From Devosia sp. (GTDB lineage Bacteria; Pseudomonadota; Alphaproteobacteria; Rhizobiales; Devosiaceae): a stretch of DNA of 64,000 nt. The translations under genes and the position numbers were made by a program. Shown here in pieces: positions 44,717-58,961 of the stretch. The stretch covers positions 1,392-65,391 of the forward strand of contig JAUXUM010000082.1 of the NCBI GenBank assembly GCA_030680995.1, read 5' to 3'. The stretch's first letter is position 1. Each line of letters begins with the position of its first letter. The notes below the pieces were generated by a model. The model was not told where the DNA came from and made no database searches. It saw only the letters and a program-made list of their open reading frames with translations.

Positions 44717-44727
44717 GCGCTTCCTCC

Positions 44728-44750
44728 CTTCTCCCCTTGAGGGAGAAGGA
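44728..44750. repeat. REP-like hairpin CCTTCTCCC-cttga-GGGAGAAGG
   Basis: 9-bp perfect stem read directly. Related CCCCTTGCGGGAGA...GGGTGAGGGGTC elements occur at 52144-52195 and 55126-55226. Confidence 0.6.
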
Positions 44751-44768
44751 AGACCGGCGCCCGCCTCG

Positions 44769-44883: not shown

Positions 44884-45297
44884 CTATTCTAAGAATTCAA
44901 GGAGCCTTTCGCCCAGTGCCTCTATGTCTTTGGTCTCACACTCCCACACAACAAGGACCTGCCAGCCCATTTCTATCAAGGTGAGGCGGACGCGCTCGTC
45001 GCGCTCTACATTGGTTCGAAGTTTGTTGTTCCAGTAGTCGAGTCGGGTTTTCGGTGCTCTTCCGTCAAGACAACCTGTCTTGTCATGCTGATGCCAAAAG
45101 CAACCATGTACAAAGATGACCTTCCGCCTTGATCCGAAGACGATGTCCGGCTTCCCGGGTAGCCCTTTCTTGTGAAGGCGATAGCGGTAGCCCTTGCAAT
45201 GCAGCCATTTCCGGACACGCAATTCGGGCAGCATATCCCTTGAACGGATAGCCGCCATATTTCTCGATCGCTCAAAGGGGGTCAGCCGATCAGCCAC
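44884..45297 (-). CDS. vsr: very-short-patch repair endonuclease Vsr
   Basis: 137 aa with RSRNMAAIRSRD..PE, GYRYRLH, GKPDIVF and FVHGCFWH motifs. Overlaps the upstream REase stop. Confidence 0.9.
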   Translation of the reverse strand: MADRLTPFERSRNMAAIRSRDMLPELRVRKWLHCKGYRYRLHKKGLPGKPDIVFGSRRKVIFVHGCFWHQHDKTGCLDGRAPKTRLDYWNNKLRTNVERDERVRLTLIEMGWQVLVVWECETKDIEALGERLLEFLE

Positions 45298-46159
45298 GGC
45301 GTTTGAAGAACCGGCTTTCAGCTACGATGGCCCGATCGGCCTGCGTCATTTTGTGCGCAATGTGCTCGTCAGACTCACATTGAGGAAGCCCGAATGCAGC
45401 AATCAGTGAATTGTGATATGCACCCGACAGCAATGCAATACCATCATCGAATAACTGGTCTCGCGCACCGTGATTACCTCGCAGCCGCTTCATGTAGTCC
45501 CGCTGATCGAACAATAACGACTGCACAACTGATCGATGGACTGGATGGTCCAGATTCTCTCTGAAGAAACTTGCGGCACGGAGTGAACCACCTCGCAGCT
45601 TCCTTAGCTCCCTGAATCTTGCCATGTCGATACCTACCCAGCGGCTGTCAGGAAGGCGCTCTTTCTCTATCAGCCAGCGGATGTGCGCTCGGGCGCTTGC
45701 GCTGACAGATCGCTTGGTATCTCGGTTTTCGCCCGGTCGCAGGTATTCGGGCTTCGCTACCATTAGTCCGACCGAACAGTGGCCGAGGGCGTCAGCTATC
45801 AGGAACAAAAGTACAGGTTCCGAGTTCCGGTAAGTCTCCGGCGGAATGGTCCACGTCGTTCCAACCGTGTTTTTGATGTCTACGTCGATGCCATCAATCG
45901 ACAAGTCCCGAATGCCCTTTGGCACATCGATGAAGTCTCGAAAGAAGTGCTCAACTTTCAATCCGACAAAGGTTTTTTCAACATTGTCGAGGTCAACGAT
46001 ACGAGTTCGAGCGGTTCTAACCGGATCTATGACGAAATCTATCGCATCTTGAACGATTTCGGGCATACGAAACCGAAGCCGCTCAACACCACCCGCTCGC
46101 CGCACGATTGCTTCGGCGATTGGTTCCAATATATCGTAGTCAGGGTGTGATCTGTCCAC
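45290..46159 (-). CDS. Type II restriction endonuclease, NaeI-family-like
   Basis: Three segments parallel recalled NaeI blocks: VEKTFVGLKVEHFFRDF..IDGIDVDIKNTVGTTWTIPPE, ENRDTKRSVSASARAHIRWL and DQRDYMKRLRGNHGARD (NaeI: TEKTHMGTLVE..VDCKF..W.LPPE; NRD.K; DDFMKRVRG.GGAR). Lies between the C5-MTase and vsr. Confidence 0.65.
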   Translation of the reverse strand: MDRSHPDYDILEPIAEAIVRRAGGVERLRFRMPEIVQDAIDFVIDPVRTARTRIVDLDNVEKTFVGLKVEHFFRDFIDVPKGIRDLSIDGIDVDIKNTVGTTWTIPPETYRNSEPVLLFLIADALGHCSVGLMVAKPEYLRPGENRDTKRSVSASARAHIRWLIEKERLPDSRWVGIDMARFRELRKLRGGSLRAASFFRENLDHPVHRSVVQSLLFDQRDYMKRLRGNHGARDQLFDDGIALLSGAYHNSLIAAFGLPQCESDEHIAHKMTQADRAIVAESRFFKRRG

Positions 46160-46174
46160 AGAAATCCGCGCAAT

Positions 46175-47143
46175 TCAGGCCAAGGCTCGCACCGCGAATA
46201 TAGTGCGACGCTCCACGGCTGTTCTTAGCCGTTTCGCCACAGCCTCCGCAACCGGTGGTGGAAAGGCGTTGCCAACCTGCCGATAGGCAGCTGTCTTACG
46301 CCCATGAAAATGCCACTCATCGTCGAATCCTTGAATCCGTGCTGCCATTCGAACGGTTAGGCGTGGCATCCCCACAAAGTCCCAGTCGGGCGCTTCTTCG
46401 GCAATCGATCTTCCATCAACGCCAAGTGAGGCCCACGCCTTACGCGCTCTCGTCGGTCCAAGGTCCGGTCCGCCATGCTTCTTGCTTCCACCCACCAGAG
46501 TTGGGGCGATTTCGTTGGCTTGGATGATCCAGCGGCGAGCACGTATCCAGCCTCTTTCCGCCATTAGATCACCTATCGCCTGACCGACGGTAGGCGCGTC
46601 ATGCGGCATCGGCGTTGGCCATTCGAAGGCGTCTTTTATGTCGTTTCTAAGCGCAACTATCACGACGCGTGGCCGCAATTGGGGCACGCCGAAATCTGAC
46701 GCATTTAGAAGTCGCCAGTGTGTCTCATATCCCAGCTTGGCAAGCGCACCCTTAATGAAACCTCGGTAATCCTCAAAGACCGCATCAAGGAAGCCCCGAA
46801 CATTTTCGATCATAACAGCTTTGGGTCTTGTCTCATCGACAAGGCGAATGGCAGCGGGGAATAGATTTCTCTCATCGTCTGCACCAAGCTGCTTTCCTGC
46901 TATCGAAAAGGGCGGGCATGGCAGACCGCCAGCAAGCAGATCGACACCCCTGTAACCAGTGCCGTCAAACTGATTCAAATCTTGCTCATGGATCGTCCAG
47001 TCCGGCCTGTTGAGACGGAGAGTCTTGCAGCAGTCGGCGTCAAGCTCGACGGCGCCCTTGTGGGAGAACCCGGCTAGTTCAAGTCCCCGCGCCTGGCCGC
47101 CAGCTCCAGCGCAAACTTCAAGTGAAGAAAGATTTCCCGTCAT
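46175..47143 (-). CDS. DNA (cytosine-5)-methyltransferase
   Basis: Motif I CAGAGG, IV GLPCPPFS, VI ENVRG, VIII QLRPRV, X GNAFPPPV. Confidence 0.9.
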   Translation of the reverse strand: MTGNLSSLEVCAGAGGQARGLELAGFSHKGAVELDADCCKTLRLNRPDWTIHEQDLNQFDGTGYRGVDLLAGGLPCPPFSIAGKQLGADDERNLFPAAIRLVDETRPKAVMIENVRGFLDAVFEDYRGFIKGALAKLGYETHWRLLNASDFGVPQLRPRVVIVALRNDIKDAFEWPTPMPHDAPTVGQAIGDLMAERGWIRARRWIIQANEIAPTLVGGSKKHGGPDLGPTRARKAWASLGVDGRSIAEEAPDWDFVGMPRLTVRMAARIQGFDDEWHFHGRKTAAYRQVGNAFPPPVAEAVAKRLRTAVERRTIFAVRALA

Positions 47144-47973: not shown

Positions 47974-47996
47974 GACCCCCGGACTTGATCCGGGGG
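47974..47996. repeat. REP-like hairpin GACCCCCGGACTTGATCCGGGGG
   Basis: Exact 23-nt reverse-complement copy at 55244-55266. Stem CCCCGGA/TCCGGGG. Confidence 0.75.
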
Positions 47997-51962: not shown

Positions 51963-51993
51963 TCCAAAACGTTTTGGAACCAAAACGTTTTGG
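51963..51993. promoter_or_regulatory. two tandem palindromes CCAAAACGTTTTGG (LacI-family-type operators)
   Basis: TCCAAAACGTTTTGGA (51963-51978, a perfect 16-mer) and CCAAAACGTTTTGG (51980-51993), with centres 16 bp apart. They lie 150-180 nt upstream of the SBP gene. Confidence 0.5.
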
Positions 51994-52143
51994 GGGCCGA
52001 TTAATGAGCCTCGCGGGGCAGTTAGCGGTGGGTCAACGTCGCACAAAGCGCCGATCTTGCCAAGCCGGGTTTTGCGGCGCCCGGCGCCTATGGACGGGTA
52101 CGTACCTCAGGGGGCGAAGTCTTGGCCACTCTCGGCCGGGCCA

Positions 52144-52658: not shown

Positions 52659-53075
52659 ATGGACACCCTTACGTCAGAGCAACGCAGCGAGCGGATGGGG
52701 CGCGTGAGGGGGCGCGACACCGGCACGGAAATGCGAGTTCGTCGACTTCTCTACCGACTTGGCTATCGCTACCGACTTCACGCCCGCGACCTTCCAGGAT
52801 GTCCGGACATTGTGTTTCGGCGGCGGAAAATCGCCGTGTTCGTGCACGGTTGTTTTTGGCATCGTCACACGGATCCAAACTGCAAGCTGGCTCGGCTACC
52901 CAAGTCGCGGTTGGATTTCTGGCTGCCAAAGCTTGAAGGCAATCGCCTGCGTGACCTCGAACGCCAGCGTGCGCTGAACGAACTCGGATGGCGGGTCCTG
53001 ATTGTCTGGGAATGCCAGACCCGGAACACAAGCGTGCTTGAAACAGTAATCCGTGAGAAATTGGGGGAACCATGA
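52659..53075 (+). CDS. vsr: very-short-patch repair endonuclease Vsr (second copy)
   Basis: SEQRSERMGRVRGRDT..E, GYRYRLH, GCPDIVF and FVHGCFWH. About 45% aa identity by eye to the copy at 44884-45297. Confidence 0.9.
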   Translation: MDTLTSEQRSERMGRVRGRDTGTEMRVRRLLYRLGYRYRLHARDLPGCPDIVFRRRKIAVFVHGCFWHRHTDPNCKLARLPKSRLDFWLPKLEGNRLRDLERQRALNELGWRVLIVWECQTRNTSVLETVIREKLGEP

Positions 53076-54283
53076 AGTCTATCGAGCTATTTGCGGGTGC
53101 CGGCGGCCTTGGGATGGGGGTGTCGCTTGCGGGCTTCGAGCCAATTCAGGTGGTCGAATGGGATAGTTATTGCTGTGACACCATTCGCGAGAATCGTGAG
53201 CGTGGAATAGCACCCATGGCTTCGTGGCCGCTTACGCAAGCTGATGTTCGCGCCGTTGATTTCGGAAGCAACGAAGGCAAAGTCGAGCTGGTCACCGGTG
53301 GCCCTCCATGTCAGCCGTTTTCCATAGGCGGCAGGCACCGCGCGTTCAACGATGCGCGTGACATGTTTCCTCAGGCCGTGCGCGCTCTGCGAGAGGTCAA
53401 GCCAAAGGCTTTCATCTTCGAGAATGTGAAAGGCCTTACTCGGCAGACATTCCGGAACTACTTCGAATACATCCGACTCCAAATGATACATCCAGAAGTC
53501 ACGGCTCGACACGATGAAAGTTGGGCGGGCCATCACGCCCGCTTGGAGCAGCACGAGAGTAGCGGCGGCCGATCGGGTCTGAGCTACAATGTGATAGTCC
53601 ATCTTGCTAACGCCGCCGACTATGGGGTGCCTCAACGTCGCGAAAGAGTTTTCTTCGTCGGCTTTCGGAGCGATCTTGGAATCGCATGGCGTTTTCCCGC
53701 TGAAACACATTCAGCTGACGCTCTCGCTTGGGCCCAGTATCGCGATGGCGAATATTGGGACCGCCACCGCGCCGGATGGCGCGAACGAGCGACATCGGAG
53801 CGCGCCCGCGTGCGGGCCTGGCGTCTTCGGGAACGACCGGCAACCGTCCCCTGGCGCACGGTAAGGGATGCCATCGCCGACCTACCCGATCCAGAAATAG
53901 GCTCGGCGCCACATCGATATTTGAACCACCGCTTTCAACCAGGAGCGCGATCTTATGCGGGACACACAGGGAGCCCGTTCGACGAACCGGCAAAGACGCT
54001 GAAGGCGGGTGTTCACGGTGTGCCTGGCGGCGAAAACATGTTGTTGAAGCCAGACGGCTCGGTCCGTTATTTTACCGTGAGGGAGAGCGCTCGTCTCCAA
54101 ACATTCCCGGACGAGTTCCGATTCCACGGTTCCTGGACGGAATCCATGCGCCAGTTGGGTAACGCCGTCCCTGTAACTCTCGCGCGAATTGTCGCAAACG
54201 ACGTAATGCGCCATTTGGAGAACATGCTTGACGATCGGACCCTACAATCCGCTGGACAAACTAAGCCTCGCGCGAAGCATTGA
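53072..54283 (+). CDS. DNA (cytosine-5)-methyltransferase
   Basis: Motif I FAGAGG, IV GGPPCQPFS, VI FENVKG, VIII PQRRERVF, X GNAVPV. ATGA overlap with vsr. Confidence 0.9.
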   Translation: MKSIELFAGAGGLGMGVSLAGFEPIQVVEWDSYCCDTIRENRERGIAPMASWPLTQADVRAVDFGSNEGKVELVTGGPPCQPFSIGGRHRAFNDARDMFPQAVRALREVKPKAFIFENVKGLTRQTFRNYFEYIRLQMIHPEVTARHDESWAGHHARLEQHESSGGRSGLSYNVIVHLANAADYGVPQRRERVFFVGFRSDLGIAWRFPAETHSADALAWAQYRDGEYWDRHRAGWRERATSERARVRAWRLRERPATVPWRTVRDAIADLPDPEIGSAPHRYLNHRFQPGARSYAGHTGSPFDEPAKTLKAGVHGVPGGENMLLKPDGSVRYFTVRESARLQTFPDEFRFHGSWTESMRQLGNAVPVTLARIVANDVMRHLENMLDDRTLQSAGQTKPRAKH

Positions 54284-54911
54284 GGCGGAGATTCTGTCGC
54301 GCGAGATCAAGCCGATGGACACAACCGAGATTATTTCCGGCGCGGGAGTGTACGTCATTTACTATCGCGGAGGCTTCGAGCCGTACTCGGTCCTTTCCGA
54401 GGCAAACAAGGATGACTGGAACCGCCCAATTTACGTTGGAAAGGCAATTCCAAAGGGCGGCCGGAAAGGCGGAATCAGGCGCGATGCCGCAGCTCGCGGC
54501 ACGGCACTTGGATCGCGGTTGCGCAAGCATGCCGAGTCCATTCGCGCGACCAGCAATTTGAAGATTGGCGACTTTGTATTTCGCCACATCGTGCTCGACG
54601 ACATCTGGATACCTCTTGGTGAGAATATCCTTATCGAGACGTTCAAGCCGCTTTGGAACGTTGCTATCGAGGGCTTTGGCATCAATGACCCGGGCGCGGG
54701 ACGGCTAAAGCAAATGCGCTCACCGTGGGATGTTCTACACCCAGGCCGCGGATACGCGGATCGCTTGACCGGGGGAGGACCTGACCTCGAGGCAGTTCTC
54801 GGTCGTGTGGAAGACTACTGCCAAGGGCGTCCGCTCAAACCGCTGCCCAAACGGCTGGAAGAAGCTGCTAAGATCGCCAGTGAGGATGACCGAGGTGAGG
54901 TAGAGGGCTAG
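54228..54911 (+). CDS. GIY-YIG-type Type II restriction endonuclease, Eco29kI-family-like
   Basis: GVYVIYY...PIYVGKAIPKGGRKG (GIY-YIG-like) and the C-terminal GINDPGAGRLKQMRSPWDVLHPGR resemble the recalled Eco29kI/NgoMIII family. A TTG start overlaps the MTase by 56 nt. Alternative ATG at 54315. Confidence 0.6.
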   Translation: MTIGPYNPLDKLSLARSIEAEILSREIKPMDTTEIISGAGVYVIYYRGGFEPYSVLSEANKDDWNRPIYVGKAIPKGGRKGGIRRDAAARGTALGSRLRKHAESIRATSNLKIGDFVFRHIVLDDIWIPLGENILIETFKPLWNVAIEGFGINDPGAGRLKQMRSPWDVLHPGRGYADRLTGGGPDLEAVLGRVEDYCQGRPLKPLPKRLEEAAKIASEDDRGEVEG

Positions 54912-54934
54912 GCAAAGCAAGATTGAACCAATCG

Positions 54935-55096
54935 CGCCGTTTCGACTCCTTCCCCTTCCCCTTCCCCGATCCCGACGAGCGACTGAAGGCCGACATCGCC
55001 GAAAAGCTCGATGCGCACCGCAAGTCGGTACAGGCGACGCATCCCGACATCACGCTGACCGAGATGTACAATTTGCTGGAGAAGCTGCGGGCGGGT
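54935..55096 (+). pseudogene. C-terminal remnant of the same Type IIG/IIL-like enzyme family
   Basis: RRFDSFPFPFPDPDERLKADIAEKLDAHRKSVQATHPDITLTEMYNLLEKLRAG matches the recalled C-terminal signature (CFETFPFP...L..HR......P.LTLT.LYN.L). It is followed by REP sequence rather than the rest of the gene. Confidence 0.5.
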
Positions 55097-55125
55097 TCCA
55101 AGCCGGCCGCATCCACCGGCTCCCC

Positions 55126-55226
55126 CTCTCCCCTTGCGGGACTTCGAGGCGGTAGCGAAGCCATCATTCGCTCCGGTGGAGCGAATGAAGCCGAAGAAGG
55201 TGCCCGAAGGGCGGGTGAGGGGTCGG
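55126..55226. repeat. REP-like composite element (CTCTCCCCTTGCGGGA...GGGTGAGGGGTCGG with an internal hairpin CATTCGC/GCGAATG)
   Basis: Ends match 52144-52195. Read directly. Confidence 0.55.
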
Positions 55227-55243
55227 GGAGGGTGGCAAGAGAC

Positions 55244-55266
55244 CCCTCATCCGCCCCCGGATCAAG
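55244..55266. repeat. REP-like hairpin CCCCCGGATCAAGTCCGGGGGTC
   Basis: Exact reverse complement of 47974-47996. Confidence 0.75.
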
Positions 55267-55350
55267 TCCGGGGGTCCCTCCCCTCGAGGGCATTTATATA
55301 CTTGACAAAGCATAGGGCAAGATTCATAACAGGGACAAGGAGTTACCGCC

Positions 55351-56301
55351 ATGCGCCTCGATCACCCGGTTTTCACCAACGTTGACGCAGCCCGCGCCCA
55401 TCTTGAGGCGCAGCGCTGGCCCAATGGGCCGGTGTGCCCGCACTGCGGCAATGTCGATCAGGCCAAGATCACGGCCATGCAGGGCAAGGCGCATCGCCCT
55501 GGCCTCTACAATTGCAAGGAATGCCGCGAACAGTTCTCGGTCACGGTCGGAACCGTGTTCGAACGTTCCAAGATCGCGCTCAATGTGTGGATGCTGGCGA
55601 CGTTCCTGCTTTCGTCCAGCAAGAAGGGCATGAGCGCGCATCAGCTGCATCGCATGTTAGGCGTCACGTATAAGACCGCTTGGTTCATGGCGCACCGTAT
55701 CCGCGAAGCAATGGCACCGCTCAAGTCCGAAACCGGCCCATTGGGCGGCGAAGGCAAGATCGTTGAAGCCGATACTACCTACATCGGCGGCAAAGAGAAA
55801 AACAAGCACGCTGGCAAGCGCGACGGCAAGGCCATCGGCGGCATGGGCAAGCAGATCGTCCACACTCTCGTTGAGCGCGGCGGTCACGCCCGCTCGCACC
55901 ATATTGCCAACGTCACCGGCGACACGTTGCGTCCGATCCTCTTTACTCAGGTTGACCGCAAGTCGTCGCTGATGACGGATACCGCTGGCGGCTATCACCG
56001 CTTGGGCAAGGAATTTGCCCGTCACGAAACCGTCGATCATGGCGCTGACGAATACGTGCGCGGCGATGCCTACTCAAACACGGTCGAAGGCTATTTCAGC
56101 ATCCTCAAGCGCGGCATCATCGGCATCTATCACCATGTCAGCGAGGCGCACCTTATGCGTTACCTTGCCGAGTTCGATTTCCGCTACAACCATCGTTCCG
56201 CGCTCAAGATCAGCGATACGGAGCGCACCGATGCGGCACTGGCTGGCATCGGAGGCAAACGTTTGACCTATCGGCGGATTGGTGAAGGCGCGAACGCCTA
56301 A
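55351..56301 (+). CDS. IS1595-family transposase
   Basis: N-terminal Zn-ribbon CPHCG...CKEC, the segment KKGMSAHQLHRMLGVTYKTAWFMAHRIREAM, and a DDE-type core (EADTTYIGG; MTDTAGGY; NTVEGYFSILKRG). AAGGAG SD upstream. Confidence 0.85.
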   Translation: MRLDHPVFTNVDAARAHLEAQRWPNGPVCPHCGNVDQAKITAMQGKAHRPGLYNCKECREQFSVTVGTVFERSKIALNVWMLATFLLSSSKKGMSAHQLHRMLGVTYKTAWFMAHRIREAMAPLKSETGPLGGEGKIVEADTTYIGGKEKNKHAGKRDGKAIGGMGKQIVHTLVERGGHARSHHIANVTGDTLRPILFTQVDRKSSLMTDTAGGYHRLGKEFARHETVDHGADEYVRGDAYSNTVEGYFSILKRGIIGIYHHVSEAHLMRYLAEFDFRYNHRSALKISDTERTDAALAGIGGKRLTYRRIGEGANA

Positions 56302-56869
56302 GCAAAGGCTCAAGAAGTTGAAGCAAGTCGGCAAGAAGTGGAAAACTTCCCGCCGACTCGACTCCAAGTAGTCATCGGCCTAATTCTGGATTCGCAACCC
56401 GAGGCAATGGGGGCTGGCGGACACCAGCTTAGCCGGAGCAGGTTGCAGTCCTTGTTCGAGACTGGAGCGCAGCCCTCAGACGGCCAAGCGCGAAAATCTC
56501 TCGATGTCCCGAGGACACTATGGATGCCGGTGCGCACCGATGCCCATGGGCCGATACACCAGCCAACGGCGGCAAAACCGTTCTGACTGGCATGACTCAC
56601 GAAACCCCAAAGGTTCCGTGGCCACGGGCCTAGGATTTCACCATGAAACCCAAGGTCTCCATCAAGTGGAAATATGACGTCGCCCTATGCCTCTTTGGCC
56701 TTGCGGCTACGCTTCACGGGCTCGCTGCGCTCGTGACTGCTTTCCACTCCTAAGCGGGGAGCGCTCGGCTTAGGCCGGGCGCTTTCGCTATGCGGCTTCG
56801 GCGGACTCGTGAGCATCCGCTTTAGCGTCTCGTTGAACTTGGTTTCGTCGTCTTTGGAGGAATTACCCA

Positions 56870-57517
56870 ATGTCCGAACCCATACCGCCGGAGTTGCTGG
56901 AACGACTTAAGACCCTCCATGAGGTTCGCGTCCCTCTCACAGTGGGTAGGGCAACCGTAGCATGGAACACGCTTTCTGGCTGCATCTTCGATCTGTTCAG
57001 TATGCTCTCTGAGATGGGGACCGACGCTGCCAAGGCGACGTTCTTCACGGTTGCCTCCGACCGTTCCCAACGAGACATGGTGAGCAACCTGGTTGAGCTA
57101 CGCATCGGCAAGCTCAACCCAAAACTCGCGAAAGATGCCCAGACCCTCCTAGGTGAGGCAAACAAACTCGCCGGGAAGCGCAACGACATCCTGCATGTGG
57201 TGTTCATTGACGACCTCGACCCCAGCAAGGTCAGTCAACTTCAGGAACGAGGGCATCTGCGCGGTAAGGCGGGGGCCGACCTGCTAGACGCAATAGATAC
57301 GTTCGCTATCGCGTCCCTCGATCTCTGTCTCAAGATTCAGCATCTACGGGGGGACCTGCTAGACATGCCTCTCTACCAAAACCGAATGATGGCCGTAGAA
57401 CTTCTTCGACGTAACGCTCAGCGAAAAGCGGCAGAATTGGCCAATCCGAGGGAATACGGTCTCCTAGATTTTCCTGCCACCACGCCACCGTCGCCGCTAG
57501 AAGACCAGCAGGAATAG
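56870..57517 (+). CDS. hypothetical helical protein with a HEPN-type Rx4H motif (candidate RNase/toxin), passenger of the IS element
   Basis: 215 aa with a strong GGAGGA SD. The motif K-R104-N-D-I-L-H109 (nt 57179-57196) is preceded by helical LLGEANKLAG. No family could be confirmed without a search. Confidence 0.45.
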   Translation: MSEPIPPELLERLKTLHEVRVPLTVGRATVAWNTLSGCIFDLFSMLSEMGTDAAKATFFTVASDRSQRDMVSNLVELRIGKLNPKLAKDAQTLLGEANKLAGKRNDILHVVFIDDLDPSKVSQLQERGHLRGKAGADLLDAIDTFAIASLDLCLKIQHLRGDLLDMPLYQNRMMAVELLRRNAQRKAAELANPREYGLLDFPATTPPSPLEDQQE

Positions 57518-57644
57518 CGGACGCATCTGTGGCGTCTGAAGAAACGTCGGCCTGTCGGCTCGAATCACTAGCAGGGGAGTTTTGCTTTGTCACGTATATA
57601 CTTCCCCCCTCGAGGGGAGGGGACCCGACTGAGAGTCTTCACCC

Positions 57645-58961
57645 TCACCGTTTATTGTGCAGCAGCCCCTGGAACGCCCGGTAGCTCGATTTGGGGGTGC
57701 GCTGCTGGGTGGCATAATCCACATGGACGATGCCGAAGCGCTTGTCGTAGCCCTCGGCCCATTCGTAATTGTCGAGCAGCGACCAGGCGAAATAGCCGCG
57801 CACGTCGGCGCCCTGTTCCTGCGCGGCGCGCACGGCTTTCAAGTGATCGTCGTAGTATCCGACGCGGCGCGGATCGTCGGCGCCCTCGACCTCGGCCATG
57901 CCGTTCTCGGTGACGTAGAGCGGCACCTTGGTGTAGTCGCGCGAGACGCGGACGAGCAGTTCCGTCAGCCCCTGCGGGTAGATCTCCCAGCCGATATCGG
58001 TCTTTTCCAGCGGCCCGTCGACCGCCTTGGCCGGGAAGCCGGGATTTGCCGGATCGTGCCGCAGGAGCGAGCGCGAATAGTAGTTGATGCCGGCCCAGTC
58101 GAGCGGGGCGGAAACCACTTCCATGTCGCTCTCGAAGCCCCGCGGCAGATGCGGGGCGAAGAGCTTGACGATGTCGGCCGGGTACTGGCCCTTGTAGAGC
58201 CCGTCCAGATACCAGCGGTTGAAGATACCGTCGAAAAGATCGGAGGCCTGCTGGTCTTCGGGCTTGTCCGAGGCCGGTTCGCATTTCTGCAGGTTGGTGA
58301 CGATGCCCAGGTTCTTGGCGCCTTCGGCCCGCAGCGCGCCGATGGCGGTGCCATGGGCGAAGAGCACGTGATGCATGGCGCGGGCGGCGGCGCGGACATC
58401 GCGATGACCCGGCGCGTGCTTGCCGAGGAAGTGGCTGAGGAAGGCCACGCACCAGGGCTCGTTGATGGTGGCGGTGGCATGCAACCGGTCGCCGAAATTG
58501 CGGGCGACCAGCGCGGCGTAGTCGGCGAACCAGTTGGCGATGTCGCGGTTCATCCAGCCGCCCTGGTCCTGCAGCGCGCTGGGCAGGTCCCAATGATAGA
58601 GCGTGGCGAAGGGCTTGATGCCGCGCGCCAGCATGCCGTCGATCAGCCGGTCGTAGAAATCGAGGCCGGCCTGGTTGACCGCGCCGGTGCCATCCGGGAT
58701 CAGCCGCGGCCAGGCGAAGGAGAAGCGGTAGCCATCGAAACCGCCGTCGCGGATCAGATCGAGGTCTTCGGGCCAGCGGTGGTAGTGGTCACAGGCGACG
58801 GCGCCGGTGTCGCCGTTCTTGACGTTGCCGGGGGTGGCCGAAAACGTGTCCCAGATCGAAGGGCCGCGGCCGCCGGTCTGGCCGCCTTCGATCTGGTAGG
58901 CGGCGGTGGCGGCGCCGAAAACGAAATTAGGGCCGAACTCGCTGCGGTTCGATGAAAACAT
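57645..58961 (-). CDS. GH1 beta-glucosidase
   Basis: FVFGAATAAYQIEG, acid/base TINEPW, nucleophile YVTENG. GGAGGG SD before the ATG at 58961. Confidence 0.9.
   Translation of the reverse strand: MFSSNRSEFGPNFVFGAATAAYQIEGGQTGGRGPSIWDTFSATPGNVKNGDTGAVACDHYHRWPEDLDLIRDGGFDGYRFSFAWPRLIPDGTGAVNQAGLDFYDRLIDGMLARGIKPFATLYHWDLPSALQDQGGWMNRDIANWFADYAALVARNFGDRLHATATINEPWCVAFLSHFLGKHAPGHRDVRAAARAMHHVLFAHGTAIGALRAEGAKNLGIVTNLQKCEPASDKPEDQQASDLFDGIFNRWYLDGLYKGQYPADIVKLFAPHLPRGFESDMEVVSAPLDWAGINYYSRSLLRHDPANPGFPAKAVDGPLEKTDIGWEIYPQGLTELLVRVSRDYTKVPLYVTENGMAEVEGADDPRRVGYYDDHLKAVRAAQEQGADVRGYFAWSLLDNYEWAEGYDKRFGIVHVDYATQQRTPKSSYRAFQGLLHNKR

Follow-up and report, generated by a model that had tools for sequence, protein, structure and literature searches.

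Why should a transposase gene fill only 41% of the segment enclosed by its inverted repeats, and does the rest of that segment move with it? The question is raised by a Devosia sp. locus in the window, i.e., the whole stretch of 64,000 nucleotides of contig JAUXUM010000082.1 that was analysed, where a first reading made from the sequence alone had proposed a cargo-carrying insertion sequence (IS) of the IS1595 family. We find that positions 55289-57606 form one transposable unit of 2318 bp belonging to this family, and we hold with high confidence that a single, cargo-bearing "transporter IS" is the best explanation of the locus as a whole.

The transposase (55351-56301, plus strand) is a 316-aa DDE enzyme with an N-terminal zinc ribbon. 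It matches NCBIfam NF033547 over all 215 model positions (E = 2.7e-55), Pfam PF12762 (DDE_Tnp_IS1595, the ISXO2-like catalytic domain; E = 1.8e-37) and, with residues 12-61, PF12760 (Zn_ribbon_IS1595; E = 3.1e-13), in agreement with the family originally proposed. A catalytic pattern of D141, D210, E246, K253 and E274-x3-R278 could be read from the sequence and the alignment. We take the ISNwi1 group to be marked by ends of the form GGnnatTAT and by DDEK together with an ER4 (E-x3-R) signature; the window element, whose ends read GGCATT-TAT and GGGAAG-TAT, presumably fits this group, and we likewise assume that its length lies within the passenger-carrying range of the ISfinder tables. To our knowledge, the transposition mechanism of the IS1595 family has been little studied. 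Its hallmarks are 8-bp duplications, a DDE domain and a zinc ribbon, the last present in every group but IS1016 (PMC8101967), and the term "transporter IS" (tIS), for ISs with passenger genes, is credited to work on this family (Siguier, Gagnevin and Chandler, 2009, Res Microbiol 160:232, as cited in PMC3129680 and PMC8101967).

The terminal inverted repeats of the window element are 24 bp long and imperfect, with 20 of 24 positions matching. The left repeat (55289-55312, plus strand) consists of the tip GGCATT and the core TATATACTTGACAAAGCA, and the right repeat (57583-57606), read on the minus strand, of the core TATATACGTGACAAAGCA and the tip GGGAAG. The 18-bp cores (55295-55312 and, inverted, 57583-57600) agree at 17 of 18 positions, as the sequence-only reading had reported, and have no further copies in the window. 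Each core is extended outwards by a 6-nt tip, the left one starting with GG like those of Caulobacter/Brevundimonas-type relatives. The first reading was right that the segment is a single bounded unit, while its limits of 55270-57616 give way to 55289-57606, which adds 12 bp to the span bounded by the 18-bp repeats. Its flanking direct copies are also present: the repeat CCCCTCGAGGG occurs at 55280 and at 57606 and at no other site in the window. The target-site duplication is the 8-bp sequence CCCTCGAG at 55281-55288 and 57607-57614, the only register symmetric about the element and one that has the same 6-nt tip offset as in relatives; an 8-bp match at a fixed offset has a chance probability of about 1.5e-5. 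The duplication core first suggested, CCTCGAGG, had the correct length and was one base out of register. A 14-bp duplication (3+8+3) was rejected, the outer 3 nt being part of the inverted repeats and kept within lineages. Within the element, an Rfam scan at E<=1 returned nothing, promoter and terminator scans gave nothing beyond shuffled expectation, and a megablast search against PLSDB plasmids found no match.

A transposase-alignment scan over one genome per species gave 80 related loci (L numbers below), all from Alphaproteobacteria or unclassified, with transposases 55-73% identical to that of the window. Clear inverted-repeat pairs were recognised in 63 of them, enclosing elements of 1882-3914 bp, and none of these 63 ends just after the transposase, at about 1 kb, or is without the additional 1-2.5 kb. 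For the duplication test, 60 of these relatives were combined with the window element and with Mesorhizobium L002 and L007, again 63 elements; each was anchored on the TATATAC core and every possible tip length was tried. With a tip of 6 nt, 50 of the 63 elements showed a perfect 8-bp direct repeat, compared with none or one for any other tip length, and in these 50 the duplication encloses the entire transposase-plus-cargo unit. The tips themselves (CCTAAT, GGGAAT, GGCAGT and others) are kept within lineages. In L002, an IS1595 transposase, a short open reading frame (ORF) and a cargo homologue lie between inverted repeats CCTAAT-TATATACTTGACGTACCA; the order transposase, middle ORF, cargo, right end recurs in L009-L013 and L095-L097; in L007 the transposase-cargo unit is interrupted by an IS21 insertion; and in L004-L006 and L098 the transposase survives only as remnants. 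Since the long architecture is common to all relatives with recognisable ends and none stops directly behind its transposase gene, the cargo moves as part of the unit and is not DNA trapped between two elements, which bears out the view of the locus as a cargo-carrying IS.

When the flanks are rejoined without the element and without one copy of the repeat, they form GGGTCCCTCCCCTCGAGGGGAGGGGACCC, a GC-rich, extragenic palindrome with one bulged C, much as the sequence-only reading had reconstituted it. Its left arm, GGGGTCCCTC (55271-55280), lies outside the duplication and pairs after removal of the element with the right arm, GGGAGGGGACCC (57615-57626), which places the insertion 18 nt past the stop codon of the minus-strand gene at 57645-58961 for a GH1 beta-glucosidase. 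The junction before insertion would be expected to read ...GGGTCCCTC-CCCTCGAG-GGGAGGGG..., and the expected empty allele would be ...CCGGGGGTCCCTCCCCTCGAGGGGAGGGGACCCGACTGAG.... The DDE transposase would recognise the 24-bp terminal inverted repeats, and the whole unit would be integrated by an 8-bp staggered cut at the centre of the GC-rich hairpin just 3' of the beta-glucosidase gene, thereby duplicating CCCTCGAG. The placement at the apex of the palindrome is borne out, palindromic targets being found clade-wide among the 50 elements with duplications. The description of the target as similar to a repetitive extragenic palindromic (REP) sequence stands for its shape and position only: no other copy of this hairpin was found in the window. 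One similar hairpin lies at 44724-44752, 18 uninterrupted GC-rich hairpins of this class were counted in 650 kb surrounding sister elements, and in L104 an uninterrupted similar hairpin lies 3' of a related beta-glucosidase gene (78% identity).

Two other accounts of the boundaries compete with a single cargo-bearing unit. The cargo could be ordinary chromosomal sequence caught between a minimal IS on one side and, on the other, a separate solo end or a miniature inverted-repeat transposable element (MITE), giving a pseudo-compound structure, and both the small share of the transposase in the segment and the divergence of the two tips would fit such an origin. This account is very improbable and was rejected, since the 8-bp duplication surrounds the entire unit, no end-like sequence is found inside the window element, the stretch at 56.3-56.7 kb singled out by the first reading included, the long layout is common to the 63 relatives, and the cargo family is tied to the transposase clade across independent genomes and insertion sites. 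Equally improbable is that GGGTCCCTCCCCTCGAGGG and CCCTCGAGGGGAGGGGACCC, the two flanking half-palindromes, belong to the element as the outer portion of its own inverted repeats of about 45 bp, with boundaries further out. The flanks do score as a 20-nt inverted repeat (90%), and the TCGA loop is self-complementary, such that direct and inverted readings are indistinguishable from the window copy alone; in relatives with asymmetric loops, however, the flanking repeats are direct (AACATATT in L007, ATTTTTTT in L002, and 48 more), the flanks vary between elements while the tips are conserved within lineages, and no duplication is found outside 55271 and 57626. The half-palindromes were therefore rejected as part of the element. 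Weighing against the single mobile unit itself are the difference between the left and right tips at three of six positions, which means that the window copy may have lost its mobility, and the fact that only one copy of the element was seen. No true empty site of the locus was found either, related beta-glucosidase loci (<=81% identity) being too distant, and the relatives represent one genome per species, so that their counts are not independent of phylogeny. Look-ups of identical proteins, made for the transposase, cargo and beta-glucosidase, led to SRR13727517 alone, with the same locus and no sister strain, and the reconstituted palindrome, searched for as an exact sequence, had no match in metagenome contigs. 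The contig from this sample runs unbroken across both junctions, which suggests that the element is present as a single copy in that genome.

Across the 50 elements with perfect duplications, target complementarity was 0.70, 0.82, 0.68 and 0.62 at positions 4-7 from the centre, compared with 0.31-0.40 in a shuffled-pairing control in which left and right halves came from different sites. In 20-22 of the 50, nearly all CCT-tipped elements among them, the trinucleotide next to the duplication matches the tip of the element itself. Judged from these sites, the clade favours palindromic targets of the form X'X'X'-N8-XXX, where XXX are the first bases of the element's tip. GG-tipped elements occupy sites such as CCCTCCC-N8-GGGAGGG, and CCT-tipped ones occupy tAGG-(AT-rich N8)-CCTa, at times beside the ends of other copies (L020, L041, L047, L056); by the same comparison, GG tips appear to prefer CCC-N8-GGG, as supplied by REP-like hairpins, and CCT tips AGG-N8-CCT. 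We infer the way in which a tip matches its target from these sequences.

A survey of REP-targeting ISs names the IS3, IS110, IS4, IS256 and IS5 families and not IS1595 (Tobes and Pareja, 2006, PMC1525189); its examples are IS1397/ISKpn1 (IS3), IS621, ISPpu9, ISPpu10 and ISPa11 (IS110) and ISRm22 (IS4). Like these, the window element sits in an intergenic GC-rich palindromic hairpin, and the preference is common to many related copies. In contrast to them, the IS1595 clade seems to need a short X'X'X'-N8-XXX palindrome matching its tips, for which REP hairpins are only one supplier; a sister lineage uses the AT-rich AGG-N8-CCT sites.

Other recurrent contexts were noted among the relatives. 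CCT-tipped (Rhizobiales) elements are found repeatedly, in either orientation, within 2.7 kb of phage terminase genes (L002, L004, L009, L020, L022, L024, L033, L053, L056, L071), and the right flank CCTTGAC(A/G)(C/T)CGT recurs in L009, L042, L053 and L056, suggesting a preferred site 5' of the terminase operon in a prophage-like region or one resembling a gene transfer agent (GTA). In the GG-tipped elements L031, L034, L036, L049 and L065 the duplication is immediately followed by a common flank, TCAAGAACAAAA, which is inverted in L034; this recurrent context is the third of its kind and is not a GC-rich hairpin. Four elements (L020, L041, L047 and L056) lie beside another copy's ends, with flanks of …TATATAATTAGG followed by 8 bp or 8 bp followed by CCTAATTATATA…; they are insertions into the junction of two ends 8 bp apart. 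The spacer ATTATTTT recurs in L041, L047, L093 and L020 and, inverted, in L009.

What, then, does the unit carry? The well-initiated ORF recognised previously (56870-57517, plus strand) is intact, has a GGAGG ribosome-binding site and encodes a 215-aa protein. Searches with this protein returned 36 homologues of 41-66% identity, many of them on contigs of about 2-2.6 kb. Of nine contexts read for the close homologues, eight (the window, L002, L004, L007, L009/L011, L095, L098 and duplicates) show linkage to an IS1595 transposase or to a remnant of one; in the ninth, L099, the sole trace of a transposase is a weak antisense match. Within the close family (34 aligned sequences), V21, P22, G26, A28, W32, N33, S63, D64, R65, Q67, R68, R104, N105, D106, H109, R127, G128, G135 and L138 are invariant. 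An iterative search among the ORFs inside the 63 elements identified distant homologues in 34 of them, in each case as the last plus-strand ORF before the right end; in these 34 sequences (12-21% identity) no internal residues other than R104 and H109 are invariant, and the consensus is RNxxxH. The first reading had left the ORF unassigned, which holds to the extent that Pfam and NCBIfam give no significant match; it is now placed in a family linked to this IS clade and bearing a HEPN-like RNxxxH motif.

We consider it probable that the cargo protein is HEPN-like. Its motif, R104-N-D-I-L-H109 in the window, is of the Rx4-6H type with a polar residue after the arginine, in keeping with the position and typical polar residue described for HEPN domains (Anantharaman et al., 2013, PMC3710099). 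The AlphaFold2 model (predicted local distance difference test score, pLDDT, 87) is all-helical and places the motif at the C-terminal end of helix 84-108, ahead of a loop and a further helix at 135-164. The protein resembles HEPN toxins and abortive-infection proteins (PMC3710099) in its invariant motif, in the modelled position of that motif at the end of a long helix within an all-alpha fold, and in its fast sequence divergence and restriction-modification neighbourhood. Sub-threshold Pfam matches in four of 34 members, two each to HEPN_RiboL-PSP (0.03) and HEPN_Cthe2314 (0.048), point the same way. Against this assignment stands the difference that neither profile nor structure searches matched the protein significantly to any HEPN family. 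Besides Pfam and NCBIfam, searches of PADLOC-DB v2 (E<=1) and PHROGs with the cargo gave no match, no HEPN profile match was found in the set of distant homologues, profile searches of the PDB returned only unrelated proteins at E > 0.03, and Foldseek gave a best E of 0.27 against the PDB, with no HEPN structure, and one unnamed match at 3e-3 against BFVD. An RxxxxH motif by itself is weak evidence for HEPN, and the conserved upstream glutamate of the distant homologues, an acidic residue, is a serine in the subfamily of the window. Taken together, sequence and model suggest a HEPN fold with RNase activity, in which the invariant RNxxxH at the end of the long helix would mark a HEPN-type RNase.

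The second gene of the unit, which the first reading had passed over, lies on the opposite strand. Just 5' of the cargo gene, a 50-nt DNA core (56791-56840) has 46 matches across loci, always in one orientation. It falls within a small conserved ORF (56685-56870, minus strand). Read from a TTG start, this ORF encodes 61 aa that include the motif KFNETLKRMLTSPPKPH and a tail of basic character. The minus-strand peptide is composed of an acidic N-terminal stretch, the pattern [F/G/R][N/D]E[T/V]L[K/R]R[M/L]LxTPPxP[H/K] and a Lys/Pro-rich tail, and homologues of 43-74 aa have been called as hypothetical genes elsewhere. We treat the 50-nt segment as probably coding because this minus-strand peptide is conserved, and the conserved peptide also led us to drop a structured RNA or a recombination site as explanations; a wobble-position test cannot tell the strands apart here, as the third codon positions coincide. 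The small ORF, with its TPPKPH motif, runs antisense with respect to the transposase gene and diverges from the cargo gene, the starts of ORF and cargo abutting at 56870, and its DNA is better conserved than that of the transposase. It has no Pfam match and no similarity to any known antitoxin. The ORF occurs in 13 elements in which no HEPN-like gene is detectable, is missing from about 13 elements with one, and is absent from the elements carrying recognised defence genes. It may act as a regulator, an antitoxin or a transposition factor.

The position held by the 215-aa gene is an exchangeable slot. In 29 of the 63 elements it is filled by other genes, and the recognisable ones are defence genes: AbiU/AIPR in L091 (3e-111), PD-Lambda-5_A in L081 (6e-164), PDC-S33 with a RelA_SpoT domain in L064 (2e-92) and an NsnA (1e-19)/GmrSD_N protein in L072. 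Cargo similarity does not track transposase similarity (69% for the transposase and about 16% for the cargo in L015, 57% and 56% in L002), which suggests that modules are exchanged between elements. That the slot can be exchanged, and can hold known defence genes, also lends indirect support to extra genes that have no part in transposition, as would be expected of a tIS. The interval between the transposase and the small ORF is variable as well. In the window (56302-56684) it is a spacer without a convincing gene, although a 36-aa ORF has been called there in the Logan contig L001. Relatives have variable middle ORFs at this position, among them an HNH endonuclease (L014), DUF1508 (L018, L036), DUF3892 (L009-L013), a BrnT toxin (L099) and an M78 peptidase pair (L004). 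Because the slot is exchangeable and holds defence genes in sister elements, and because the window element lies in a low-GC stretch with restriction-modification neighbours (see below), the cargo is most likely a toxin or abortive-infection gene riding on the IS, and a defence role is our best guess for it.

Two further explanations of the cargo and the small ORF have to be set against this reading. They could be accessory or regulatory components of the IS, acting on transposase expression or target choice like the second genes of IS21 and IS66. The regularity with which the cargo family and the small ORF are linked to the transposase does weigh in that direction and against a passenger: the cargo gene keeps its position and orientation in 34 of the 63 elements, the close family is found with a transposase or remnant in every context read save L099, and the 46 matches of the small-ORF core share one orientation and exceed the transposase in DNA conservation. 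We nevertheless regard this explanation as improbable, since the other 29 elements, with intact ends and duplications, lack the cargo gene and carry unrelated genes instead, several of which are recognised defence genes on the opposite strand; moreover, the elements with AbiU, PD-Lambda-5, PDC-S33 or the GmrSD-like gene lack the small ORF and still have target duplications, and the divergence of the cargo (12-21% identity) far exceeds that of the transposase (55-73%) and is decoupled from it. Somewhat less improbable, yet still unlikely in our judgement, is an addiction pair of the toxin-antitoxin type made up of the HEPN-like protein and the product of the small ORF, whose main effect would be to stabilise the IS, or the island holding it, and not phage defence. 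The divergent, adjacent arrangement with abutting starts would suit such a pair, as would the presence of BrnT, HicAB and an M78 peptidase in or beside related elements, and HEPN toxins are commonly paired with small partners (PMC3710099). The two genes are, however, also found one without the other, the small ORF resembles no known antitoxin, and the other cargos of the slot are defence genes rather than classical toxin-antitoxin pairs.

In type, the window element is already known, a textbook-like transporter IS. It shares with ISNwi1-type tIS the single DDE transposase with an N-terminal zinc ribbon, the terminal inverted repeats, the 8-bp duplication and the extra genes 3' of the transposase inside the ends. 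For its RNxxxH helical cargo, its small antisense ORF and its preference for palindromic targets that match the tips, as for the defence-type cargo slot and the HEPN-like family as such, no description was found in the literature searched. Defence systems are also found among the cargo genes of Tn7-like transposons. The IS1595 clade resembles these in having a variable slot beside a conserved transposition module, with anti-phage genes in sister elements, and is distinguished by its vehicle, a one-transposase IS of 2-4 kb with one or two genes; in addition, the cargo of the window is not itself a recognised defence gene.

The surroundings of the element are of a different composition from the rest of the region. 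The stretch at 52.8-57.6 kb has a GC content of 55-62%, compared with 64-68% in its flanks, and interrupts a group of beta-glucosidase and sugar ATP-binding cassette (ABC) transporter genes. Two restriction-modification pairs lie nearby: adjoining the IS are a C5 methylase gene (53072-54283) and an Eco29kI-type endonuclease gene (54228-54911), both on the plus strand, and 8 kb away lie genes for a NaeI-type endonuclease (45290-46159) and a further C5 methylase (46175-47143), both on the minus strand. A 130-aa ORF without a Pfam match (54923-55315) starts at the end of the Eco29kI-type gene and continues into the element. The first half of this ORF resembles the C-terminal fragment of a larger protein, and the rest reads through hairpin repeats. 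Two hairpins lie to the left of the insertion site, at 55209-55256 (GGGCGGGTGAGGGGTC…GACCCCTCATCCGCCC) and at 55254-55276 (CCCCCGGATCAAGTCCGGGGG). The latter has an exact 23-nt inverted copy at 47974-47996, and therefore at least one hairpin type is repeated in the genome. An AT-rich tandem palindrome, TCCAAAACGTTTTGGAACCAAAACGTTTTGGG, at 51963-51994, just 5' of a solute-binding-protein gene (51884 downwards), looks like an operator site.

For the locus itself, these results improve the annotation by providing the right boundaries, the right duplication and two genes that had not been annotated. For the family, it is tempting to speculate, as a tentative reading to which we give less than even weight, that this IS1595 clade specialises in shuttling anti-phage or toxin cassettes of a single gene, and that a backbone of transposase, small TPPKPH protein and 24-bp ends, with tip-directed targeting, would carry a swappable slot that mostly holds a new, fast-evolving family of HEPN-type RNases and otherwise AbiU, PD-Lambda-5, PDC-S33 or a GmrSD-like gene. 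If this is true, insertion would be guided by the match of the 3-nt tips to the flanks of the 8-bp spacer, and a change of tip between GGG and CCT would redirect insertion, away from REP hairpins and towards a site upstream of terminase genes in prophages. The covariation of tip and target flank would amount to a simple and experimentally tractable rule of target choice, and the 215-aa family to a new HEPN-like branch with a list of candidate catalytic residues. The type of element is known; the clade-wide patterns, namely the defence slot, the HEPN-like family, the small ORF and the tip-matched targets, are new relative to the literature searched. They suggest that, besides large transposons and prophages, very small ISs may carry single anti-phage genes between alphaproteobacteria.

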